Part shown: in pieces, positions 5,554 through 43,294 of the stretch
Position numbering within the stretch: the first letter of the stretch is position 1
How the letters are laid out: each line of letters starts with the position of its first letter
DNA from: a virus
Virus record (IMG/VR): IMGVR_UViG_3300038336_000104
Span: 1 to 47,742 of that record
Strand: one strand, 5' to 3'
Length of the DNA: 47,742 nt
Notes under the pieces: generated by a model
Seen by the model: the letters and a program-made list of their open reading frames with translations, nothing else
Databases searched by the model: none
What the model was told of the DNA's origin: nothing
Translations under genes and position numbers: made by a program

Positions 5554-6753
5554 TTACAATTCCGGCATCGACTTCCTGAAGAATTCCGATTCCCATCCAA
5601 CCATTGATTTTAGGTATTCATCCGTTATCTGTACCGATGAATGCCCCATTTGGTGCTGTATTTCCTTGATATCGGCACCAGCTTTCAGCGCTTGCACCGC
5701 ACCGGTGTGCTTAAATCCATACAGCTTGTAATCTTTGGGGATTTTCAACTTTTCGCGCACCTTGTCATATTGCCGCCATAAATGGTTTTTAGAAAGATGT
5801 TTTTCACCGGGGATCCCCTTTAAAGTAAATACAAAATAATCTTCCGGATATTCCTGAAGGTGGTATTCTTCGTAAAGCTTTTCAAGAAACGTTTCGTTGA
5901 TATCCACAATGCGGGTGCTGCCCGATTTGGTGATATCGCTATATAGCGTTATACGACCTTCAAACAGATCGATGTGCTTTATCTGCAAAAAACGCAATTC
6001 CTTTGGCCTTATAAAACAATAATACATAAACTGAGCGGCCAACCACAATTGCGGATCGGTTTTTTCGATCTCCTTCTTCAGGATAGCTAATACCGCACGC
6101 TTCATGGGGATTTGTGGTTTGGTTTTGGATTGAAATTTTTGAATGTCTTCCCATGGATCGGCCAGCAACTTTCGGTCTTTACGCGCTACCTTCCAGACGC
6201 GGCGCATGGTTTCGAGGTATTGATTTTTGGTTTTACCTCCAATTTTCCGTTTTTCATCAAGATATTGAAAGAATTCGAGCGCATTTGGTTTTGTGAAGCA
6301 ACTAATATCCTCATCGCGTAGCTTATTTAGTCGTAGGAATTCATCCACTATGCGTAGTTCTGATTGATATTTCTGATAGGACGCCTTCCCTATATTCATT
6401 TTAATGCTATCCAAAAACCTATTTGAATAATAACGTATCGACCGCTTTGTTTGCCGTATGGGGTTTACCTGTTTGGCAAGATCCTGGTAAACCAGGTTAT
6501 CCCGGTAAATCAATCCCGGATCGTTATCCGGAAGCCATCCCGATTTAAGTTTTCGCAGGTACTTTGCTTTGAGTGCCCGTGCATTTCGTTCCGCTTCTTC
6601 CTTGGTTTTGCACGATGCAAACCCGGCAAACTTGCGGTAACGCACTAATTTTCCGGTCAAATGGTTGCGTACACTGAAATGAACATACCAATGTACAAAG
6701 TCGGCACCAGGTGCCCGATAAATTTTTGGAAGAATGATTTCAATTTGTCTCAT
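5554..6753 (-). CDS. int: Tyrosine recombinase / phage integrase
   Basis: 399 aa. The C-terminal catalytic region FKHTGAVQALKAGADIKEIQHQMGHSSVQITDEYL is typical of Bacteroidota-type tyrosine integrases. An N-terminal SAM-like/arm-binding region is present. Confidence 0.9.
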   Translation of the reverse strand: MRQIEIILPKIYRAPGADFVHWYVHFSVRNHLTGKLVRYRKFAGFASCKTKEEAERNARALKAKYLRKLKSGWLPDNDPGLIYRDNLVYQDLAKQVNPIRQTKRSIRYYSNRFLDSIKMNIGKASYQKYQSELRIVDEFLRLNKLRDEDISCFTKPNALEFFQYLDEKRKIGGKTKNQYLETMRRVWKVARKDRKLLADPWEDIQKFQSKTKPQIPMKRAVLAILKKEIEKTDPQLWLAAQFMYYCFIRPKELRFLQIKHIDLFEGRITLYSDITKSGSTRIVDINETFLEKLYEEYHLQEYPEDYFVFTLKGIPGEKHLSKNHLWRQYDKVREKLKIPKDYKLYGFKHTGAVQALKAGADIKEIQHQMGHSSVQITDEYLKSMVGWESEFFRKSMPEL

Positions 6754-17791: not shown

Positions 17792-17872
17792 GCGTTCCCC
17801 TGCGGGTCAGGCTTTCCGCTATATCTTTCCCTGGCTCCACCAGGTAAAGGATGCCGCTGCAATCCTTAACGC
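17792..17872 (+). repeat. About 80-nt structured repeat element, copy 1 (second copy at 27571-27650)
   Basis: The 5' 37 nt match at 33 of 37 and the 3' 27 nt at 25 of 27. The central 16-17 nt differ, but both copies fold into a hairpin there. Confidence 0.85.
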
Positions 17873-17913
17873 GAAAATCTTCCTGGTAAAGGTTGTATTT
17901 CACATGAATTTTG

Positions 17914-27570: not shown

Positions 27571-27650
27571 GCGTGCCCCTTCGGGTCGGGCTTTCCGCTG
27601 TATCTTTTCCTTGCTTCGCCGGAAAAGGATGCCGCTGCAATCCCTCACGC
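27571..27650 (+). repeat. About 80-nt structured repeat element, copy 2, starting 9 nt after the terL stop
   Basis: See 17792-17872. The closing stem gcgtG/Cacgc differs from gcgtT/Aacgc in copy 1 by a compensatory pair change. Confidence 0.85.
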
Positions 27651-27947
27651 GGTTGGAAAAACATGGTTACTATATTAAAGAAGATACTACTAACCACCAG
27701 ACCGACCAACTTAAACAAAAATTTTAAAATAACTGTATAACGTACTGTTTAGATGCACGTTGTCATATATCCAATAAAAAACGCAATATGCAAAGGCATA
27801 TCATGGGCAGAGCGGGTCGGTCTGAAAGCAGGCTTTCACACTTTCCCGAAAGTGTGATAAAGGGCAAAAAGCCTCATTTACAGGAATAATAATCAATTTG
27901 ATTTTGATTTTTGATTCTTAACATGATTGAAATATTTGTAAACATTT

Positions 27948-28062
27948 AAAAACGGCTACCTTTTCTTTTCGGAAAGAAAAGGTAGACCAAAAGAAAACAG
28001 GCCCCCAAGGAATTTTTGCTTTTATGGTATTCAGTATAAATGGGGTGGGGGCGTTACCTTAA
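27948..28062 (-). ncRNA. Candidate minus-strand small RNA (promoter box to intrinsic terminator, no ATG)
   Basis: The minus-strand -7 box TAACTTTG is the + strand caaagtta at 28070-28077. About 100 nt without an ATG follow. The unit ends in a perfect 13-bp stem with a 4-nt loop (27956-27985) followed by TTTTT on the minus strand. Confidence 0.4.
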
Positions 28063-28083
28063 TTAATAGCAAAGTTATTGATC

Positions 28084-28219
28084 GTGAGTTGACAAAGTCA
28101 ATGGCCGCCTCCTGATGGAGCCGCGGCCCCGTGGGGTTCGGTCAGTTTTCGCTTTTTATTGTTTGTATTTTTCGGGATTGCGAAAACAGACATTCACCAT
28201 TGACAAGAAGTCAACTCAC
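28084..28219 (+). ncRNA. Multi-branch structured element upstream of the ArdC-N-like/SymE-like operon (leader or ncRNA)
   Basis: A bipartite closing stem (28084-28093 with 28210-28219, and 28097-28104 with 28197-28204) encloses hairpins at 28103-28128, about 28127-28136 and 28141-28191. Confidence 0.45.
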
Positions 28220-28284
28220 TCAATAAAATTTTTGCATTAATTAATTTAACGCTGGCGGCAACAGCACAATACGGCATTTGTATC

Positions 28285-28620
28285 ATGAAAAAATCAACAA
28301 CTGACGTTAAACAAAAGCGTCGTGAATTAAGTGCTTTATCCAAGGTGATTAAGGCACAGATCCATTCAGGGGAACTTGATGCAGGATCTGTTAACGAAGG
28401 ATTGATTGAGGTGTATTCCGGAGGAGAAGAAATTGAATTCAACACCTTTCATCAATGGAAAGACAAAGGGCTTTCGGTGAAAAAAGGAAGCAAAGCTTAC
28501 CTGGTATGGGGAACACCCAGGCAGGTACCAGTTCCTGATGCTGAAGATGATGATGAAATGAAGTTCTGGCCAATTTGCTACCTGTTTTCAGCCAATCAAG
28601 TTGAAAGGAGGCAGTCATGA
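28285..28620 (+). CDS. ArdC N-terminal-like (ssDNA-binding, anti-restriction-type) small protein
   Basis: 111 aa. FNTFHQWKDKGLSVKKGSKAYLVWG resembles the W.TF.Q...G..V+KGEK motif of the ArdC N-domain. Only part of that domain is present, so the function is tentative. Confidence 0.45.
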   Translation: MKKSTTDVKQKRRELSALSKVIKAQIHSGELDAGSVNEGLIEVYSGGEEIEFNTFHQWKDKGLSVKKGSKAYLVWGTPRQVPVPDAEDDDEMKFWPICYLFSANQVERRQS

Positions 28621-28811
28621 CACGATCAATTAAAGTGCAATCGCATGTTATTCCTCATTCATTCAGATCACCAATGAAGATTTTTAGTCAATTGTTGCTA
28701 AAAGGAAAATGGTTGTCTGAATCAGGGTTTACTCCTGGTGATCAGGTATCAATTGAGGTGACGCCTAACCAGATAATCCTCCGTAATATTAAGAAAGGAG
28801 GCCCGAGATGA
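28617..28811 (+). CDS. SymE-family (AbrB-fold) toxin-like protein
   Basis: LLLKGKWLSESGFTPGDQVSIEVTPNQIIL aligns with the E. coli SymE core [30 protein letters not shown]. ATGA overlap with the upstream gene. GAAAGGAGG lies 6 nt upstream of the ATG. Confidence 0.8.
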   Translation: MTRSIKVQSHVIPHSFRSPMKIFSQLLLKGKWLSESGFTPGDQVSIEVTPNQIILRNIKKGGPR

Positions 28812-28951
28812 TTGATGCTTTTGTAGAATTTCTCGATTCTATCTACTATGAAGGATATGCGATGCACACAGCTTTGGATGATCCGGGTAGGTTCACTTTT
28901 GAATTTAACGAATTCATTGAAAATTACGGTTCAGGACTTAAAAGGTCCTGA
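28808..28951 (+). CDS. Small acidic protein (47 aa, below the ORF-track cutoff)
   Basis: The ATG at 28808 overlaps the SymE-like stop (ATGA). The same GAAAGGAGG box lies 6 nt upstream. The gene ends inside a strong terminator. Confidence 0.5.
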   Translation: MIDAFVEFLDSIYYEGYAMHTALDDPGRFTFEFNEFIENYGSGLKRS

Positions 28952-28962
28952 ACCTTTTTTTT
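28928..28962 (+). terminator. Rho-independent terminator
   Basis: ggttcaggac N7 gtcctgaacc followed by TTTTTTTT. Confidence 0.85.
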
Positions 28963-28965
28963 GTG

Positions 28966-28973
28966 TAACTTTG
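28966..28973 (+). promoter_or_regulatory. Candidate -7 box TAACTTTG for the XRE-family gene
   Basis: Exact TAnnTTTG 25 nt before the ATG at 28998. Confidence 0.45.
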
Positions 28974-28997: not shown

Positions 28998-29228
28998 ATG
29001 CTGATTAATAATAAAAAGTATGTTCAAGCCCGGGAAAACATTTGTAGGCAGCTTCGGGAGACTGTTTTGGATAACAAGATATCAGTTGATGAGATTGCTT
29101 TGAAAACTGGATTAGTAAAATCAAACGTTAACAGGGTTTTAAATGGGATGTATGCTCCGAAATTGGACCATGTTATTGCTATTGCTGATGTTATCGGGTT
29201 TAAATTGACTATACAAGAGGTGCCATGA
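28998..29228 (+). CDS. XRE-family HTH transcriptional regulator
   Basis: 76 aa. ISVDEIALKTGLVKSNVNRVLNG...KLDHVIAIADVIGFKL is a classic Cro/C1-type HTH. Confidence 0.75.
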   Translation: MLINNKKYVQARENICRQLRETVLDNKISVDEIALKTGLVKSNVNRVLNGMYAPKLDHVIAIADVIGFKLTIQEVP

Positions 29229-29647: not shown

Positions 29648-30484
29648 ATGAAAAGCATAATAAAGAATATAATTTTTCCTGTCCTTGCATCTGGTATTTT
29701 TTTTTACGGAGTACAATCCTTAGTTGAGTATTATTCGCGTTCCGATGGCGCTTACCAAATGTTATTATATCAGTCCAATGATGAATATCATGCATTAATA
29801 CAGATTTCAAATGAATCAACAAAATCGCAAAATGACTTTAAGTTTTTCGTTTCTGATATTAAAAATGTTAAGCTTAGTCACTCTCGTGATATTCAATGTG
29901 AATTAATTTATGATAGTAAAGATTCTAGCCACTGTTTCTTTATCGTTCCTGATGTTTATCCTCGCGTAAGTTGTTATATAGATTTATCTGGACTAACCAG
30001 TAATTCGACAATTAGTTTTCTAAATGCGGAAGATCTCGGTTATAGCAGTTATGAAAGTCTAGTAAATAAGCAATTAAATTCTAAGTGGTTAGTTGTCATG
30101 AATTCGATTTTATATACTGTAATATTAGGAATAACCATGACATTACTAAATGTTCACACTACAAAACGATATGAACAAGAAAATAAAACACTTAGAGATA
30201 AATTACAGCAATTAACAAGTAATGTTGAAGATATTGGTAGGTCGTACAAATCATTGATGAAACATAGGTTACTATTACTAGCAAGAATAAGAGATTATGA
30301 GAAAGAATTGAATTTTTGGCAGACTACAATTTCAAAGATATTACTTAAGTCAAAATTGTTAAAACCCAAAACATTATTTAACATGATTACAACCGAACTA
30401 AAGACATTTGGAACAAAGGCATCGGATGTAAAAGATCTGTCATTTGCAGAGTATATTGCAAAAATAATAAGTAAAGAACAATAA
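29648..30484 (+). CDS. AT-rich membrane protein with two TM helices and a C-terminal coiled coil; function unknown
   Basis: 278 aa. TM segments IIFPVLASGIFFYGV and LVVMNSILYTVILGITMTLL. Heptad-like C-terminus. Visibly lower GC than the rest of the genome. Confidence 0.65.
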   Translation: MKSIIKNIIFPVLASGIFFYGVQSLVEYYSRSDGAYQMLLYQSNDEYHALIQISNESTKSQNDFKFFVSDIKNVKLSHSRDIQCELIYDSKDSSHCFFIVPDVYPRVSCYIDLSGLTSNSTISFLNAEDLGYSSYESLVNKQLNSKWLVVMNSILYTVILGITMTLLNVHTTKRYEQENKTLRDKLQQLTSNVEDIGRSYKSLMKHRLLLLARIRDYEKELNFWQTTISKILLKSKLLKPKTLFNMITTELKTFGTKASDVKDLSFAEYIAKIISKEQ

Positions 30485-30645: not shown

Positions 30646-30721
30646 AAACCCGCTTCATGGAAATGTAAGCGGGCTTTCGCCCTTCGGGTGCGTTCAGTTT
30701 TTTCGGAAGGGAAAAAACTGA
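30646..30721 (+). ncRNA. Three-hairpin structured element related to the core of 28103-28191
   Basis: Hairpins at 30649-30673, 30678-30690 and 30694-30721. The segment cccttcgggtgcgttcagttttttcg matches cccgtggggttcggtcagttttcg at 20 of 24 positions plus a 2-nt gap. Confidence 0.4.
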
Positions 30722-30823
30722 CATGCATTTTTGTTCCAAAATTTTTAATCCGGTATTGGGTGGCCATTAAAATTAATGGTGTGCCAGGTACCGAAATAAA
30801 TCCGAAAGGCATCGGTGAAAAAA

Positions 30824-31236: not shown

Positions 31237-31412
31237 GTTCGTTTTTACAACAAGTTATCAACACCCTTAACTTATTTAAGATCATTAGTTAAATTTGCAG
31301 TTATAATCTCATTTATAGTATTATTCATTGAAATTATTACTGTATTTAGTTCTTATTTGTATTGTGGGTTTAATTTATTGAAAGTTTTCTTGACTTAATC
31401 AATAGTTGTATA

Positions 31413-31547
31413 TATATTTGCAAATCGAAAATTATCTGAATAACCTCTTGTTAGGTTGACCATTAAAAATTTGCGCCACTTATTACTATTTAAAAACTGT
31501 GTCACGCAAGAACTTGAACCCGATATCCCAAGTATCGGGTTTTTTTT
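31413..31547 (+). ncRNA. Candidate small RNA unit: -7 box TATATTTG (31413-31420), about 90 nt without an ATG, and an intrinsic terminator (31517-31547)
   Basis: Exact TAnnTTTG with a TTG about 20 nt upstream. The terminator is aacccgata N7 tatcgggtt followed by a T-run. There is no ATG between box and terminator. Confidence 0.4.
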
Positions 31548-31601
31548 CGCTTAATAGCGAAGGTAGTTACCGCCTAAAGGGACAGAAAGGAGGTATTCCT
31601 C

Positions 31602-31730
31602 ATAGATAATTTTCGAACAATTGATGGTCGACTACATAAGTTGGTATTCTGTAAATACATAACCAGAAATGGCAAACGTGTTTATCCGAAAAAGGCGAAA
31701 GCGTTTTCGTTTTGGGTACCTGTAACTTAA
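31602..31730 (+). pseudogene. Possible 42-codon basic ORF with ATA where a start codon is expected (decayed or non-canonically initiated gene)
   Basis: GAAAGGAGG (31585-31593) is followed 8 nt later by an in-frame ATA. The frame stays open to the TAA at 31728-31730 (..KLVFCKYITRNGKRVYPKKAKAFSFWVPVT). The same SD box precedes the two ATGA starts at 28617 and 28808. Confidence 0.25.
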
Positions 31731-31832: not shown

Positions 31833-32150
31833 ATGGATGAAATCAATTTATTTTCTGCAATTGCAGAAATGCGAAAGTTAACGGCTCAGGGCATTCCTTT
31901 TTCGTTTGAGCATTACACCTGGGACGCGCTCAGGCAAAAATCGTCGGGTTTGCGGCGGGTGGATAAGGCAACGCTCAGGCCTTCGGCACGGGGTGATAGC
32001 ATTGAGCATGCTGATCACAAATTGTTTTATCAGGACTTGAACGTGGGAGATCCACTGAAAAATAAACGAAACTGCTGGCAAATTCTCATCGTGAGATTCA
32101 ACGGCATTAAGGTTACTCCAAAATCTGTGTTTTATGAGAATATCAAGTAA
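31833..32150 (+). CDS. Hypothetical protein upstream of the portal candidate
   Basis: 105 aa from the internal ATG (MDEINLFSAIAEMRKL). The longer ORF-track start would read through the terminator at 31752-31778. Confidence 0.55.
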   Translation: MDEINLFSAIAEMRKLTAQGIPFSFEHYTWDALRQKSSGLRRVDKATLRPSARGDSIEHADHKLFYQDLNVGDPLKNKRNCWQILIVRFNGIKVTPKSVFYENIK

Positions 32151-33481: not shown

Positions 33482-33739
33482 ATGAGTGCCTTAAAACCAA
33501 TAGAATTTAAAGAATCCAATAAAGTATTGACCAAGCCACAAAATATGGATGAAGAATGTGGCGATTTACATGTTTTTAATGATGGTAAACAAAGCATAAG
33601 TTGTTGGAGATTATCATTTAAACAACGAATCAGCGCTTTATTATTTGGCCGTATATGGCTGAGTGTTTTTGGAGGAATAACACAACCTCCCGTTTGGATT
33701 GATTGCTCAAAAACCGTTTTCATCGATAAGGAGGAATAA
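33482..33739 (+). CDS. Hypothetical small protein
   Basis: 85-aa ORF, tightly packed. Confidence 0.55.
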   Translation: MSALKPIEFKESNKVLTKPQNMDEECGDLHVFNDGKQSISCWRLSFKQRISALLFGRIWLSVFGGITQPPVWIDCSKTVFIDKEE

Positions 33740-33741
33740 CC

Positions 33742-34731
33742 ATGCTTTTTAACAAATCAAATAACGGCCAAGCCGAATTAAAATCCCTGATGGGTTTTCT
33801 GCATGCCTCGAATACTTTTGCGAATATAGAAACCGATATCCTGCTGGAGCATGAAGCCATGACAGAGCTAATTGGTAAACCGGTGATGGACAAAGCCCAG
33901 ACTCACTACGATTCGGCGGCTTACAACACAGGTGGCGATGTAAAATTACTTGATGACCTGGTGCATTACATTCAGTTGCCTGTGGCGTATTATGCCACAC
34001 ACAATTACGCTTCGCACAGCGATGTTACCCATGGTGACGATGGCCGTAAGGTGGTGATTGATTCGGCCAACGAAAAAATGGCCTGGGAGTGGATGATTGC
34101 CCGTGATGATGAAGCCACGCTAAATAAAGCCCATAAAACCACCGACCGGCTGATCGCTTTTCTGGAGGCCAATGCGACTAACATTGCCGAATGGAAGGAT
34201 TCGGCTGCCCAAAAGCTGGCACGAAGCCTGTTTATCAATACAGCCAGGCAGTTCGATGATATTTTCCCCATCGACAATTCACGCCGTTTCTTCCTGAAAA
34301 TTCTGCCATTTATCCGCGAAAGCGAGCGTAAATACCTGCTACCGGTACTGGGAAAAACCCGCTTTGATGATATTAAAGCAGCTCTGTTAACCGGAAATTT
34401 TACCGATTACGAAGATATGCTGCTGCTTATCCGCGTGCCATTGGTATATTACTCATTGAGTTTGGCTGTTAAACGATTGTCGATTAACATGCTGCCCAAT
34501 GGCATTTTTCAGGATTATATCAGCGACAGGCTGACCATGAAGGCCAAGCAACCGGCTCCAACGGATGTAAGGCGCGAAATCGGCCAGAGCTTTCTGGCGG
34601 ATGCGCTGCTCGAGCTTGAAAACCTGCAAAAGGAGCTGAGCAAACTGGATGCCGAAGCCGCCGCCATTGATTATGTACCTGTTGATCCCATTGCACACAT
34701 TGACCCTGAAGCACAAATTTTTAGAATATGA
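33742..34731 (+). CDS. Head or connector-associated structural protein (unknown)
   Basis: 329-aa ORF in the structural operon. Confidence 0.6.
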   Translation: MLFNKSNNGQAELKSLMGFLHASNTFANIETDILLEHEAMTELIGKPVMDKAQTHYDSAAYNTGGDVKLLDDLVHYIQLPVAYYATHNYASHSDVTHGDDGRKVVIDSANEKMAWEWMIARDDEATLNKAHKTTDRLIAFLEANATNIAEWKDSAAQKLARSLFINTARQFDDIFPIDNSRRFFLKILPFIRESERKYLLPVLGKTRFDDIKAALLTGNFTDYEDMLLLIRVPLVYYSLSLAVKRLSINMLPNGIFQDYISDRLTMKAKQPAPTDVRREIGQSFLADALLELENLQKELSKLDAEAAAIDYVPVDPIAHIDPEAQIFRI

Positions 34732-39167: not shown

Positions 39168-39626
39168 ATGGACGGTAAATACAATGATTTAGAACTTCTA
39201 TTTATTGAAGAAGTACTCGACCAGCATGGAGAGTACCTTACTGATTTATTGACCGAAGATATTGATAACAGGCGTCTGCCTTTGCGCGTTACTGATGACC
39301 TGATTAACAGCATTTCGTACAAAACAAGCAAATACGGTATTGACCCGGTATTGCTGATTAATTTTATGAGCTATGGCCGTGCCATTGAAATCCGTTGGCA
39401 CAAAAAAAGCGATAATACCAAAAACTGGACTACCGACACCAATCGCCAGGTGTGGGGCATAGGAGCCAATAGAAAAGCAAAAAAGAAAGATACCCGTTGG
39501 TATGCGCGCAATGTATATGGATCGCAAAACCGCCTGATATCCATTCTTTCGAACGAATTTACCGAAGAAGAAAAAGCCCGCCTGAAAGGGATCCTCGATC
39601 AACAACAAATACGCATGGCCTTATGA
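39168..39626 (+). CDS. Hypothetical protein immediately upstream of the tape measure gene
   Basis: 152-aa ORF with an ATGA overlap onto the TMP start. Confidence 0.6.
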   Translation: MDGKYNDLELLFIEEVLDQHGEYLTDLLTEDIDNRRLPLRVTDDLINSISYKTSKYGIDPVLLINFMSYGRAIEIRWHKKSDNTKNWTTDTNRQVWGIGANRKAKKKDTRWYARNVYGSQNRLISILSNEFTEEEKARLKGILDQQQIRMAL

Positions 39627-42600
39627 GTTTAAAAATAGACCGCCTCCAGCTCGAGATAGTGATAAACAACGACCAGGCGCGTAAGAGCCTGCGCCTGCTT
39701 GAAGATGAAGCACGCCAGTTAAAAAAGGATTTAAAGAAAGTACCTGAGGGCAGCGATGAATGGAATAAAATAAGCAACCGGCTTAAAGCCATCCAGGTGC
39801 AACATGATGGTATTATTCAAAAGTTGGGAATTGAGAATCTTACATTAAAAGAGTTGGGGCAAAGGCAGCGTGAGTTAAATGCCATACTCAGTCAGATGCG
39901 TCCCAGTATGCAGGGATATACTGAATTAAAACAACAGCTCGATGCCGTTAATTTACGCATGGCAGAATTAAAAGGAAAATCCCAACAAACCAATGCTTCG
40001 CTAAGCAAGATGGCCCAGGGATTTAACAAGTATTTTACTATGGTAACCGCCGGTATTGCCGCTTTTACCGGAGTATTTTTCTCTATAAAAGAATTGATTA
40101 CAGGACTTTCTGATCTTGATGATCAGATTGCTAATGTGATGAAAACAACCGGACTTACTAAAAAGGAAGTCAGGGAGTTGCACAGCGAATTCAAATACCT
40201 GAACACCCGCACACCTCGCAAAGAGCTGATGTTGCTGGCCGAAGAAGCCGGGCGACTTGGCAAGAAAAGCAAGAAGGATGTAATGGACTTTGTGGAAGTT
40301 GCCAACCAAATTAAAATTGCCCTGGGCGACGATTTGGGTGGAAATGCTGAAGAAGCCATTCGCGAGGTAGGTAAACTAACTACCATTTACAAAATTGGTG
40401 AGCAATACGGCACCGACTTTAAAGAATCGATGCTTAAAGTAGGTTCGGCTATTAACGAAGTTTCGGCCAACAGCCAGGCGCAAGCACCCTTTTTAATTGA
40501 GACACTTAAACGACTTGGTGGATTGGCCACACAGGCAGGTATTATGGCCGATGAAGTTATTGGTTACGGATCGGCTCTGGACCAGTTGGGGCAACGTACC
40601 GAAATGTCATCTACAGCACTGAGCAAGGTGATCTTAAACATGTTTACTGATACCAGTACCTATGCCAAAATAGCTAAAATGGAATTGGGCGAATTTACCA
40701 AATTGCTTAATACCGATGCCAACGAGGCGTTTTTAAAAGTGCTTGAAGGGTTGAATGGAAACAATGACGGATTGACCGTGATGGGTGAAAAGCTGGGCGA
40801 TTTGGGTTTGGATGGATCCAGAGCTGTACAGGTTCTTGCAACGCTTGCCGGTAATACTGAAATGGTTCGTAATGAACAGGCATTGGCCAATAAGGCCATG
40901 AAAGAAGGGACTTCGTTAACCAACGAGTACAATGTAAAGAATGAAAACATGGCCGGTAACCTGGAGAAAATAGGCAGGGCCATGCGTGCCTGGTTCATCA
41001 ATTCTACAGTAAACAAAAACATGGAAAAATTTGTTGGCTATTTTGCTGAACTGGTTAAGTATCCACTTTCTGAAAAATTGAACAAAGAGCGCATAAGCGT
41101 TAATGGTTTGGTAATAGAAATGACGAGCGCCAACACCACGGCTGAACGCAGGAATACCATTTATAAGCAATTGATGGAGATGAACCCGGATATTGTTGAC
41201 GGCATTGATTTGGAAAATATCAGCATTGTACAACTTCGTAAAAACCTGGCTTTATATAATGAAGAGCAAATTAAGAAAATTGCTCTTCAGGATTCTGAGG
41301 AAGCATTAGCCGATACAAGAGAAAAACTTGGAAAGCAAATTGGCGAGAAATTGGAAATAGAAAACAGTTTAGGCAAGGAACTTTTAAAAATAAAGGAAAA
41401 AATTTCAGTTTGGGACAAAGAGGCTGCAACCAAAATGGAGGAAATTTTATTTAGCGATATTGATATTATTGAAAAATCGAACAAAATCAGAGAGATAGCC
41501 AGCGAGATAGCCCGTGCAAACGGATTAAATGCCAATAGCATAACAACAGCATATCATAATACCGTACTACTCGAAGATGCCAGAAAAAACGAAGTAAAGC
41601 TTCAGGATGAATTTAATGAGTCATTTGCTGAGTATCAAGAAATGTACAACCGGGTTATGGATAAATCTGCCACTCAGGGAGCATATCCGGGACCTCCGTT
41701 ACCGCCTAATTTGAATAAGGGAGGGCAGGAAAATACTGCCACCACCATCACTACCCTAAAGACACAACTAGAGGCTTTGAATAAAGCACGCAACGAGATT
41801 AACATAGCTGATACAGAAGCTTTACTCAAAAATCAGCAGGAGATTGAAGCCAAGGAGGCTTTAATAAAAAAGTATGAAGATCTCGGTAAAACATTAAAAA
41901 CAGTTTCAAAAGAAAAAGCTTCACAACACTCTGATTTTATGTATTTCGCTAAGGTGGAAGAAGATCAGAAAAAAAACATGAGCGAGGAAGAAAAACGAAT
42001 TTTAAACGAACAGCTGTTTTTCAAACAGTTGGAAAGTGATCAAAATAAAGCCAATATTGAGCAAGACCTAAAAGACCTGGAAGACAAATACAAGCGCGAA
42101 AAAACCCTTGCAGAAACCAGGTATAATGAACAATTGCTTGCTTTGGGTACCAACGAAGCCGCTAAAAAAGCACTGAAAATTCAGTTTGAAGCTGACGAAT
42201 TACAGCGCAACCTTACACACCTGAATGAGCTGAAAGCAATGATGGAGCAATCGCTTCAGGGTATCAACCTGGAGGATGCGATGCTAAGTGATGAGGACAG
42301 GGATGCGCTATTGGTTAAAATTGACGAATTAAACCTGGCGATATCACAACTGAAGCTGCTGGCTAATGATCAGGAATCAGCAACTCCTGCCGGTGAACTT
42401 TCAAAAATGCTCTTCGGTTTTGATGATGGAGATACCTTGTTTGAAAGAATTGCCAAAGTAGGGCAATTCGCGGTAACTACGTTTAGTAAGATAAACCAGA
42501 TTATTTCCAACTCAGAGCAAAAGCAATTACAGGATTTTCAGCGCGCCAACGACCAAAAGAAAAAAGCACTCGAACAGCGTTTGAATTCCGGTAAAATAAC

Positions 42601-43294
42601 TCAGGAGCAATACAATACCGCTATTTCGGCTTTGGATGAAGAAATGGCCAAAAAGCAACGGAAGATTGCCCACGACCAGGCAGTTCGTAATAAAGCCATT
42701 GCCGTTATGCAGGCCATTGTGAATACTGCCGCAGGGGTTGCAGCTCAATTGGCAATCCCTGGTGCAGGTATCGGACTGGCCATTGCCGCTGCCGCTATGG
42801 GTGCCATTGAAATAGCCATTGCAGCCTCTACCCCGGTACCTGCTTTGGCAAAGGGTAACCGTCAAAAAATACTGGCCGATGACGGCAAAACCTACAATGC
42901 CAAAGTAGCATCCTCCGATCATGCTTCCGGCTTGTTTAACGAACCCACCTATGTGCCCGGCTTTGGCCTGTTTGGCGAAACAAGAGATCCAGAGCTGGTA
43001 TTTAACCCGCGCGATACCCAGTCCATCATCAACTCCCCCGCGCTAATCGATGCCATCAACATGACACTGGGTGGCCGGCAATACGCTCAGGGAAACTCAC
43101 GAGAGATTATCCGGGAGAACAACACGGTTACAACTACCGCCATGGATCCGGAAACCATGGCTTTACTGGCCGACATCCGTAAAAAGCTCGACCAACCCGC
43201 TACCGCTTACCTGGTAGCCGATGAAGACTACATCCGTACCCACAAAAAAAAGGTTACGGAATACGACACATTTAAAAAGAGAGTAAGCAATTAA
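39623..43294 (+). CDS. Tail tape measure protein
   Basis: 1223 aa from the ATG at 39623. Long coiled coils, a conserved TMP core region (DFVEVANQIKIALGDDLGGNAEEAIREVGKLTTIYK), and a hydrophobic Gly/Ala-rich segment near the C-terminus. Confidence 0.85.
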   Translation: MSLKIDRLQLEIVINNDQARKSLRLLEDEARQLKKDLKKVPEGSDEWNKISNRLKAIQVQHDGIIQKLGIENLTLKELGQRQRELNAILSQMRPSMQGYTELKQQLDAVNLRMAELKGKSQQTNASLSKMAQGFNKYFTMVTAGIAAFTGVFFSIKELITGLSDLDDQIANVMKTTGLTKKEVRELHSEFKYLNTRTPRKELMLLAEEAGRLGKKSKKDVMDFVEVANQIKIALGDDLGGNAEEAIREVGKLTTIYKIGEQYGTDFKESMLKVGSAINEVSANSQAQAPFLIETLKRLGGLATQAGIMADEVIGYGSALDQLGQRTEMSSTALSKVILNMFTDTSTYAKIAKMELGEFTKLLNTDANEAFLKVLEGLNGNNDGLTVMGEKLGDLGLDGSRAVQVLATLAGNTEMVRNEQALANKAMKEGTSLTNEYNVKNENMAGNLEKIGRAMRAWFINSTVNKNMEKFVGYFAELVKYPLSEKLNKERISVNGLVIEMTSANTTAERRNTIYKQLMEMNPDIVDGIDLENISIVQLRKNLALYNEEQIKKIALQDSEEALADTREKLGKQIGEKLEIENSLGKELLKIKEKISVWDKEAATKMEEILFSDIDIIEKSNKIREIASEIARANGLNANSITTAYHNTVLLEDARKNEVKLQDEFNESFAEYQEMYNRVMDKSATQGAYPGPPLPPNLNKGGQENTATTITTLKTQLEALNKARNEINIADTEALLKNQQEIEAKEALIKKYEDLGKTLKTVSKEKASQHSDFMYFAKVEEDQKKNMSEEEKRILNEQLFFKQLESDQNKANIEQDLKDLEDKYKREKTLAETRYNEQLLALGTNEAAKKALKIQFEADELQRNLTHLNELKAMMEQSLQGINLEDAMLSDEDRDALLVKIDELNLAISQLKLLANDQESATPAGELSKMLFGFDDGDTLFERIAKVGQFAVTTFSKINQIISNSEQKQLQDFQRANDQKKKALEQRLNSGKITQEQYNTAISALDEEMAKKQRKIAHDQAVRNKAIAVMQAIVNTAAGVAAQLAIPGAGIGLAIAAAAMGAIEIAIAASTPVPALAKGNRQKILADDGKTYNAKVASSDHASGLFNEPTYVPGFGLFGETRDPELVFNPRDTQSIINSPALIDAINMTLGGRQYAQGNSREIIRENNTVTTTAMDPETMALLADIRKKLDQPATAYLVADEDYIRTHKKKVTEYDTFKKRVSN

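Follow-up and report, generated by a model that had tools for sequence, protein, structure and literature searches.

A mini-gene operon encoding an ArdC-N domain protein, a SymE-like protein and an acidic mini-protein in a temperate Bacteroidota phage, and its probable place in a modular gene set of mobile elements

The closest described relatives of the genes reported here are ArdC of the IncW plasmids R388 and pSa (structures 6i89 and 6sna) and the polyvalent proteins, in which the N-terminal domain of ArdC (ArdC-N) acts as a DNA-bound 'header' of counter-defence polypeptides of phages and conjugative elements (Iyer, Burroughs, Anand, de Souza, and Aravind 2017, PMC5512222). The hallmark of these proteins, thought to be delivered with the DNA against host defences, is the joining of ArdC-N with peptidases, RadC, and methylases, and a relationship between ArdC-N and the BHD domains of Rad4 was proposed in the same work (PMC5512222). 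In the present study, an operon of three small genes (G1, G2, and G3) was analysed in the IMG/VR virus record IMGVR_UViG_3300038336_000104, whose whole stretch of 47,742 nucleotides (nt) is termed the window. The window is an essentially complete temperate tailed-phage genome of ~47.7 kb, and the same contig was found in about a dozen assemblies. From comparison with related loci, the operon is one lineage-specific arrangement of a widespread modular gene set centred on ArdC-N and carried by mobile elements of Bacteroidota. Like ArdC, G1 is borne by a mobile element and has the N-terminal domain that binds single-stranded DNA (ssDNA), by profile and by fold. Unlike ArdC, it consists of the N-domain alone (111 amino acids, aa), comes from a double-stranded DNA (dsDNA) phage rather than a conjugative plasmid, and has as partners a coiled-coil protein (C1), a SymE-like protein (G2), and G3. 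The gene set shares with polyvalent proteins the ArdC-N header together with RadC-JAB, methylases, and uncharacterised domains, but in the window the functions are split into mini-genes instead of being joined in one giant polypeptide. SymE or AbrB domains are not mentioned in the searched text on polyvalent proteins (PMC5512222).

The product of G2 resembles SymE of Escherichia coli (symER), with which it shares the SymE_toxin core LKGxWLxxxGFxxGxxV and an AbrB-like half-barrel. E. coli SymE is toxic when over-produced. G2, at 64 aa and restricted to the core, is shorter than E. coli SymE, for which the NCBIfam model has 113 positions; it also differs in belonging to an operon and, in other elements, in being joined to an ArdC-N domain within one protein. 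In their translation signals, G2 and G3 can be compared with the autoregulated rpsU gene (bS21) of Flavobacteria, which likewise carries a strong and conserved Shine-Dalgarno (SD) sequence, rare in Bacteroidia; unlike that of rpsU, the SD sequences of the operon lie inside the upstream coding sequence at an ATGA overlap (PMC9976891, PMC13000453).

A preliminary description, made by a model from the sequence alone, had reported three plus-strand open reading frames (ORFs) joined by ATGA overlaps at 28617 and 28808 and closed by a strong terminator; both the frames and the terminator are present as described (Table 1). Codon changes relative to the related locus L001 were mostly synonymous, with synonymous to non-synonymous ratios of 27:15 in G1, 18:10 in G2, and 6:1 in G3. 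Purifying selection thus acts on all three ORFs, which are therefore real genes. A DNA search with the 4.6-kb region against 50,697 phage records gave no matches. Word-indexed protein searches with single window proteins returned near-identical relatives only, and the G1 family was reached by an exhaustive HMMER search.

Against the Pfam ArdcN profile (PF08401), G1 scored 22.6 bits, exactly at the cut-off and over 27 residues only. The G1 family comprised 684 representative clusters of proteins of ~110-125 aa; the ArdcN profile was matched by 71 of 72 sampled members and the Rad4 BHD_2 profile by four. ArdC was the sole PDB sequence match of the G1-family profile and was aligned across the whole domain. 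The AlphaFold model of G1 had a predicted local distance difference test (pLDDT) score of 90.7, and a Foldseek search with it retrieved ArdC (6i89/6sna) as the top match with a probability of 1.00, followed by the BHD domains of Rad4/XPC. The C-terminal zincin-like metalloprotease domain was not found in G1, since the N-domain model covers all 111 aa and no other Pfam match was obtained. The profile and Foldseek results bear out the earlier assignment of the first protein to ArdC-N without the metalloprotease part. By its model, G1 is most probably a stand-alone ArdC-N domain lacking the protease, and it is predicted to bind ssDNA.

The SymE core that had been recognised in the middle protein was confirmed by profile, G2 scoring 39.9 bits with Pfam SymE_toxin (PF08845; cut-off 29, E = 4.7e-10, residues 22-56). 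The match with Pfam MazE_antitoxin (E = 6.5e-5) was just under the cut-off, and the NCBIfam SymE equivalog NF010128 failed at 25.2 bits with a cut-off of 132. When the G2-family profile was compared with solved structures, the best matches were MazE (E = 0.02), PemI (0.03), and AbrB (1.2), weak but consistent over a range of 0.02 to 1.3. From these profiles, G2 is probably an AbrB-type half-barrel, a fold of AbrB, MazE, and SymE-type proteins that dimerises to bind DNA. G2 differs from the MazE/PemI antitoxins and AbrB in the weakness of these matches, in the lack of a MazF/PemK-type partner, and in an entirely different gene context.

No match to G3 was obtained in Pfam, PHROG, NCBIfam, or PADLOC. 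A search with a profile of its relatives gathered 111 clusters of acidic, aromatic-rich proteins of 40-74 aa, all unannotated, with the motif F-[IV]-[ED]-[FY]-[IL]-D-x-[IL]-Y-[YFW]-x-G-Y-A ... N-P ... F-E-[FY]-x-E-F. By these sequence criteria, G3 founds an unannotated protein family. Descriptions of G3 and of C1 were found neither in any of the profile libraries nor in the literature searched, and comparison of C1 with Pfam and PDB profiles gave coiled-coil noise only.

The exact triad of 111, 64, and 47 aa was found only in close relatives (L001, L003, and IMG/VR 3300014205_000656); its parts, together with C1, recurred in about 240 phage and mobile-element loci. The three-component module of the preliminary description thus holds as an exact triad for close relatives only, and what is widespread is a modular set anchored by C1, a fourth gene that had been missed. 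In total, 163 loci were collected via G1, including 79 from species-representative genomes (nearly all Bacteroidota) and 80 viral contigs. The usual gene order in them was putative terL, C1, G1, variable genes, and putative portal. Of the 163 loci, 143 had C1, a coiled-coil protein of ~150 aa, next to G1, and the pair may point either way with respect to the structural genes. In the window lineage, C1 has been displaced ~2.5 kb downstream. A SymE-like gene adjoined G1 in about 30 loci of this set, arranged as C1-SymE-G1 or C1-G1-SymE, and G3 followed G1 in about 20; elsewhere G3 followed C1. A scan centred on SymE revealed C1, G1, or G3 within the 3-kb flanks of 33 of 79 viral loci, some of which had the order C1-SymE or C1-SymE-G3 with no G1 detected; the other 45 loci were mostly weak matches over the domain core only. 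Searching from G3 brought up chromosomal islands that carry integrases and neighbours of the cyclic-oligonucleotide-based antiphage signalling system (CBASS), KAP, or restriction-modification type, in which G3 follows C1 or G1 and is itself followed by DUF932 or RadC. Taken together, the gene orders suggest that, within a module centred on ArdC-N, the SymE-like protein is an exchangeable DNA-binding subunit.

Two independent natural fusion proteins, P0037 and P0153, of 237 aa each and 65% identical, were found in different metagenomes with the domain order SymE-G3-ArdC-N. A C1 gene lies just upstream of the fusion gene in L165. The joining of SymE, G3, and G1 in one chain is strong evidence that these parts act together physically. 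With the two fusions and the adjacency of the genes in both orders, the tight coupling and functional linkage proposed for the operon are well supported.

Ribosomes of Bacteroidia normally sequester the anti-SD sequence and are SD-blind (PMC7797042, PMC9976891, PMC13000453), which makes conserved SD boxes unusual; in Flavobacterium johnsoniae, rpsU is the one strong-SD gene and is better translated by ribosomes free of bS21 (PMC9976891, PMC13000453). The sequence GAAAGGAGGC occurs exactly twice in the 47.7 kb, at 28603 and 28793, with GAAAGGAGG once more at 31585 and no occurrence on the minus strand. Identical boxes do precede genes 2 and 3 as had been noted, but the spacing of 6 nt assigned to both needs correction: the distance from the 10-mer to the ATG is 4 and 5 nt, and from GGAGG 5 and 6 nt. 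Scored on the 18 nt 5' of each start, the anti-SD duplex energy was -11.9 kcal/mol at both the G2 and G3 starts and -1.7 at the start of G1, which lacks an SD. Almost all of the other ~75 candidate starts in the window fell between about +2 and -4 kcal/mol, including those of other overlapping gene pairs (e.g., 7739, 12162, 35752, 44226, and 45415). The sole other strong-SD start belongs to ORF 33742-34731 (AAGGAGG 7 nt upstream, -11.1 kcal/mol), an exception overlooked when the genome was called SD-poor, which is correct for nearly all starts. This ORF encodes 329 aa with DUF6712 and phrog_27760 and directly follows the putative portal gene (SD region 33728-33744).

In L086, whose G1 is 65% identical to that of the window and which has no SymE-like gene, the G1-G3 junction GGTGGAAAGGAGGCAGTCATGA is the same as the G1-G2 junction sequence of the window. 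From this identity it can be deduced that the SymE-like gene was inserted at an ancestral G1-G3 junction with duplication of the box, and the duplicated SD box is the scar of that cassette insertion. Horizontal import from an SD-using lineage, which had been suggested earlier, is unlikely, as the families are essentially confined to Bacteroidota elements and cassette insertion explains the pair of boxes. A strong SD was found at nearly all G1-to-G3 and G1-to-SymE junctions across diverged phages, and in four of the loci with SymE upstream of G1 (L030, L038, L080, and L023) G1 itself is strongly SD-led. First genes and C1 lack a strong SD: energies of -7 kcal/mol or below were obtained for 11 of 21 G3 starts and 2 of 119 C1 starts, with 9% for background starts. 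The boxes may serve termination-reinitiation coupling at the ATGA overlaps or may respond to the state of the ribosome.

The region 5' of the operon is more conserved than the genes themselves: ~330 nt 5' of G1 are ~99% identical among the window, L001, and L085, whereas the coding sequences diverge. The segment 28020-28284 folds with -93.4 kcal/mol (z = -5.9 relative to shuffled controls), and homology to the G1 leader of L086 extends over its 5' half. It contains the hairpin GGCCGCCUCCUGAUGGAGCCGCGGCC, two inverted 22-bp sites with TTGAC-N3/5-GTCAA cores (about 28085-28106 and 28197-28220), and a sigma-70-like element TTGACA-N18-TAAAAT at 28200-28229 with 11 of 12 positions matched. Promoters of Bacteroidota use a different consensus, TAnnTTTG. 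A Frpo-like single-strand promoter in the stem bearing TTGACA-N18-TAAAAT was considered and is left as speculation, given the dsDNA nature of the phage and the differing consensus of Bacteroidota. The hairpin at the 5' edge of this region was kept with compensatory changes in L086, L013, L089, and L087, and its minus strand scores as terminator-like. A CCUCC-containing hairpin within 28020-28284 is complementary to the downstream SD boxes, and CCUCC/CUCCU hairpins were also observed in the G1 leaders of L086, L013, and L089, all with SD-led downstream genes.

A second structured leader, related to that of the operon and with its canonical window copy standing before C1, was found in 40 copies in 20 loci, always on the coding strand, with the last hairpin ending 8-9 nt 5' of the ATG; a pattern search with its 3' box gave 34 copies. 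The genes behind it are G1, C1, G3, or RadC-JAB, and the leader-bearing loci are the window, L006-L013, L066, L086-L089, and L174. Two leader helices covary clearly, with double changes at 5 of 9 predicted pairs. An invariant G-U pair favours action of the leader as RNA on the plus strand. Hairpins resembling UUCG loops were observed in its upstream part. The radC RNA motif is reportedly located in 5' untranslated regions. Like the window leader, which precedes ArdC-N, RadC, G3, and C1 genes, the radC and STAXI RNA motifs are structured, often repeated, and situated near RadC, anti-restriction, single-stranded DNA-binding protein (SSB), and integrase genes, and their UUCG loops speak for RNA rather than DNA (Weinberg et al. 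2010, PMC2864571). They differ in having been reported from Proteobacteria/Enterobacteriales, and their Rfam models miss the Bacteroidota leader even at E <= 5. No match to either leader of the window was found among the Rfam 15 families at this threshold. By its covariation and recurrence, the leader is a candidate new cis-regulatory RNA, and its sharing provides further evidence that the G1, C1, G3, and RadC genes are co-regulated. The Rfam Flavo-1 motif gave full-length matches in the window at 27580-27658 (-) and 17801-17877 (-), with 51.6 and 51.5 bits and a gathering score of 42; one of them is located directly 3' of putative terL, on the strand opposite to it, and that a phage should carry this motif may be noteworthy. 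Flavo-1 was rejected as a part of the leader because of its opposite strand and different structure.

Table 1. Positions of the operon, its signals, and other features of the window
Feature	Position	Strand	Description
G1, 111 aa	28285-28620	+	Probable stand-alone ArdC-N/BHD-fold protein, predicted ssDNA binder
G2, 64 aa	28617-28811	+	Protein with a probable SymE-family/AbrB-MazE-like swapped-hairpin domain
G3, 47 aa	28808-28951	+	Acidic, aromatic-rich mini-protein of an unannotated family
SD box 1, GAAAGGAGGC	28603-28612	+	Within the last G1 codons, 4 nt 5' of the G2 ATG
SD box 2, GAAAGGAGGC	28793-28802	+	Within the last G2 codons, 5 nt 5' of the G3 ATG
Intrinsic terminator	28928-28962	+	12-bp stem (28928-28954) followed by T8; closes the operon
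Operon leader and promoter region	28020-28284	+	Located by alignment, folding, and site scan
Polypyrimidine/polypurine hairpin, GGCUACCUUUUCUUUU-CGGA-AAGAAAAGGUAGACC followed by AAAAGAAAAC	27953-28003		5' edge of the operon upstream region
Canonical structured 5' leader, ~155 nt	30668-30823	+	Helices GGYG...YRCC and YCNN-ARGGCA-NNGR; before C1
C1, 127 aa	30824-31207	+	Coiled coil; start reassigned to ATG 30824 from the leader spacing
HTH_3 (Cro/CI-type) gene	28998-29228	+	Own Bacteroidota -7 box TAACTTTG at 28966
Third box, GAAAGGAGG, with a 42-codon frame opening with ATA	31585-31730	+	Homology to a 40-aa basic protein of L073
Integrase	5554-6753	-	Window gene
Tape-measure protein	39497-43294		Window gene

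The neighbours and fusion partners of the G1 family indicate a common functional theme. Among ten long G1-family matches examined, five were fusions with RadC-JAB and three with DUF3560. Islands of Bacteroidales have G1, G3, and RadC genes in a row, with a type IIG restriction-modification gene and a DUF6371/DUF3987 element as neighbours. An orphan N6 DNA methylase (cluster c26) follows G1 in 13 loci, among them that of the cultured Flavobacterium phage vB_FspS_laban6-1 (L258, NC_048834.1, 19565-21432). This phage encodes C1 (gp23), a small protein (gp24), a SymE-like protein (gp25, annotated as 'type I addiction module toxin'), G1 (gp26, annotated as 'ssDNA-binding domain-containing protein'), and the methylase (gp27), which overlaps gp26 by 4 nt in the annotation of the record; it has no G3. 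Relatives of the operon carry the combination of ArdC-N with RadC-JAB, a methylase, or conflict domains that defines polyvalent-type networks, while the window operon holds the non-catalytic parts only. In L007-L012 and L174, G1, G3, and RadC-JAB each stand behind their own copy of the leader; the tandem genes of L007 lie between an Eco57I-like type IIG restriction-modification gene and DUF6371/DUF3987 genes, and those of L174 beside CBASS (SMODS and S_4TM) and three tyrosine recombinase genes. These gene sets look like the cargo of integrative mobile elements.

The fusion partners, the methylase neighbour, and the polyvalent-protein framework favour a role in establishment or of the anti-restriction type. 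It is accordingly as a tentative preference that we regard the operon as a nucleic-acid-binding module of this kind and not as a toxin-antitoxin (TA) system. It would be a small nucleoprotein-forming module of a temperate tailed phage of Bacteroidota, acting on the element's own DNA at entry or establishment. G1 is started without an SD, and genes 2 and 3 would be translated by termination-reinitiation at the ATGA overlaps, aided by the strong SD boxes; in a host with a masked anti-SD, the boxes could make the yield of G2 and G3 depend on coupling or on bS21-free ribosomes. The three proteins may form one complex, in which G2 would be a second DNA-binding subunit and the acidic G3, placed between the two DNA-binding parts, an adaptor or modulator. 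Such a complex might coat or mark ssDNA or single-strand/double-strand junctions of the phage genome, as found at ends and at replication or recombination intermediates, and the DNA would then be shielded, or partner activities (methylase, RadC) recruited. Of the two alternatives offered in the preliminary description, the anti-defence one was the better part of the guess, and no positive evidence was obtained for the TA-like one.

Several observations weigh against an establishment or anti-restriction role. The anti-restriction activity of ArdC in work on R388 reportedly needs the metalloprotease domain, which G1 lacks, and the window operon has no RadC or methylase partner. In the literature searched, no biochemical or genetic function was found for the G1, G3, or C1 families, and the anti-restriction role is drawn by analogy only. 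The position of C1-G1 between putative packaging and head genes could point to a role in the virion or in packaging. The AlphaFold model of the fusion protein, built from a shallow multiple sequence alignment, had a pLDDT of 74.9 and a predicted template modelling (pTM) score of 0.50, and its inter-domain contacts are unreliable. The gene cluster of laban6-1 has no SD boxes, so that the SD is not essential to the module. Some toxicity of G2 is possible in view of the toxicity of over-produced E. coli SymE.

A more specific version of the preferred reading, in which C1, the ArdC-N mini-protein, the SymE-like half-barrel, and G3 make up an undescribed modular DNA-coating system with two RNA-level devices, the leader and the SD boxes, is decidedly unlikely as a whole. 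In such a system, the repeated leader may be an operator for autoregulation by ssDNA/RNA-binding G1, as with gp32 of T4, and the SD boxes would work only in coupled reinitiation or on bS21-free ribosomes, the stoichiometry reading the state of the host ribosome.

The genes could alternatively be accessories of phage DNA metabolism, with C1-G1 as the core of an SSB-like or end-binding factor in replication, recombination, or packaging/cohesive ends and with SymE and G3 as accessory subunits that bind DNA. The ssDNA-binding fold of G1 is consistent with this, as are the near-universal presence of C1-G1 in G1-selected loci, between the putative large terminase and portal and in either orientation, and its conservation in cultured laban6-1. 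However, non-phage integrative islands carry these genes too, next to RadC, DUF932, integrases, and restriction-modification or CBASS genes, and the direction of transcription of the cassette is often opposite to that of the structural genes. In addition, fusion to RadC-JAB or DUF3560 and a methylase neighbour are features typically seen in counter-defence or entry proteins and not in parts of a replisome. A DNA-metabolism role is therefore considered unlikely.

As a TA or abortive-infection module, the operon would encode a growth-inhibitory G2 (or G1) that is neutralised by G3 or G1, in a ratio fixed by coupling. The Pfam SymE_toxin match of G2, the close linkage of the small genes by ATGA overlaps, the third of them encoding an acidic protein, the label 'SymE family type I addiction module toxin' given in databases and literature to genes of Bacteroidota phages and prophages, and the location of E. 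coli symE within a restriction/defence island (PMC12707154) would all fit. Yet the SymE equivalog reached 25 bits with a cut-off of 132, PADLOC-DB v2 gave no matches for G1, G2, or G3, and the nearest solved relatives are the antitoxins and regulators MazE, PemI, and AbrB, not toxins. The partners of G2 belong to no known toxin or antitoxin family, and no adjoining toxin family was detected in Pfam, NCBIfam, or PADLOC, G1 being ArdC-N and G3 having no matches. The minus strand of 28285-28951 shows neither the TAnnTTTG -7 motif nor an Rfam match, the motif scan being a weak test for a SymR-like antisense RNA. Moreover, the SymE-like gene is optional and may precede or follow G1, in-frame fusions join it to G3 and G1, and G1-G3 pairs occur without it. 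A TA function is thus very unlikely, and what likelihood it keeps comes from the toxicity of over-produced E. coli SymE and from G3 as a potential neutraliser.

Equally improbable is a transcription-regulatory cassette, in which the AbrB-like G2 and the adjacent helix-turn-helix (HTH) protein bind the TTGAC...GTCAA sites with G1 and G3 as co-regulated passengers: AbrB/MazE-fold proteins are classical DNA-binding regulators, the two inverted 22-bp sites flank the promoter-like region, whose conservation exceeds that of the coding sequence, and further HTH genes are seen in the vicinity of G1, but the inverted repeats of relatives vary by compensatory substitutions, as expected for RNA or a hairpin rather than a protein-recognition sequence, the SymE-like gene is missing from most loci that keep the C1-G1 core, and the in-frame SymE/ArdC-N fusion fits a joint nucleic-acid-binding role rather than a free repressor.

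The HTH_3 gene that follows the operon is a possible regulator, its belonging to the module being uncertain; HTH genes were found near G1 in further loci too. It encodes 76 aa in the window and 164-169 aa in relatives (L001 3067-3576 and L002 494-988), and the sequences part abruptly after the HTH domain, which suggests that the C-terminal domain was replaced or truncated. Between the HTH_3 gene and C1 lies an ORF of 278 aa (29648-30484) without a family match, for which N-terminal and central hydrophobic segments were predicted; it is present in the identical contig L178, missing from L001, and represents variable cargo.

The third box at 31585 precedes an ATA codon, as the preliminary description had stated. 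The product of the 42-codon frame behind it (...KYITRNGKRVYPKKAKAF...) resembles the 40-aa basic protein of L073 (...WITVKGKRVYPKKAKCF...; L073 4634-4780, -), whose gene has GGAAAGGAGG followed by ATG. By this homology, the frame is probably a decayed or non-canonically started small gene of a family unrelated to the triad. Hence, its description as a decayed relative holds for the decay, or a non-canonical start, but not for the relationship, the basic proteins forming a separate family. This family is a second set of SD-led mini-genes in Bacteroidota phages. The box lies in an AT-rich non-coding segment of ~470 nt (31255-31730) missing from L001 and L085, in which the C1 terminator is directly followed by a 104-aa gene corresponding to 31833-32150 of the window. 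Elsewhere in the window, the labels terL, portal, and capsid were not confirmed by profile searches (PHROGs and Pfam) or PDB searches of the window proteins; the 579-aa Walker-A protein has conserved counterparts, annotated as hypothetical, among cultured phages of Bacteroidota.

The novelty of the locus lies in the splitting of ArdC-N/polyvalent-type proteins into mini-genes together with the unannotated families G3 and C1 and a SymE/AbrB partner. On the comparative evidence, 'SymE type I toxin', the label attached to such genes by annotation pipelines and in one or more prophage surveys, seems misleading where phages of Bacteroidota are concerned. The conserved SD boxes provide a natural test case for SD pairing in an SD-blind phylum, and laban6-1 offers a cultured phage-host pair in which the C1-SymE-G1-methylase arrangement, without G3, is directly testable. 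The G1 family is broad (684 clusters) and, in the loci examined, almost always paired with C1. Should it serve establishment or anti-restriction, the module would be a common host-range determinant in Bacteroidota phages and integrative elements of gut and environmental origin.

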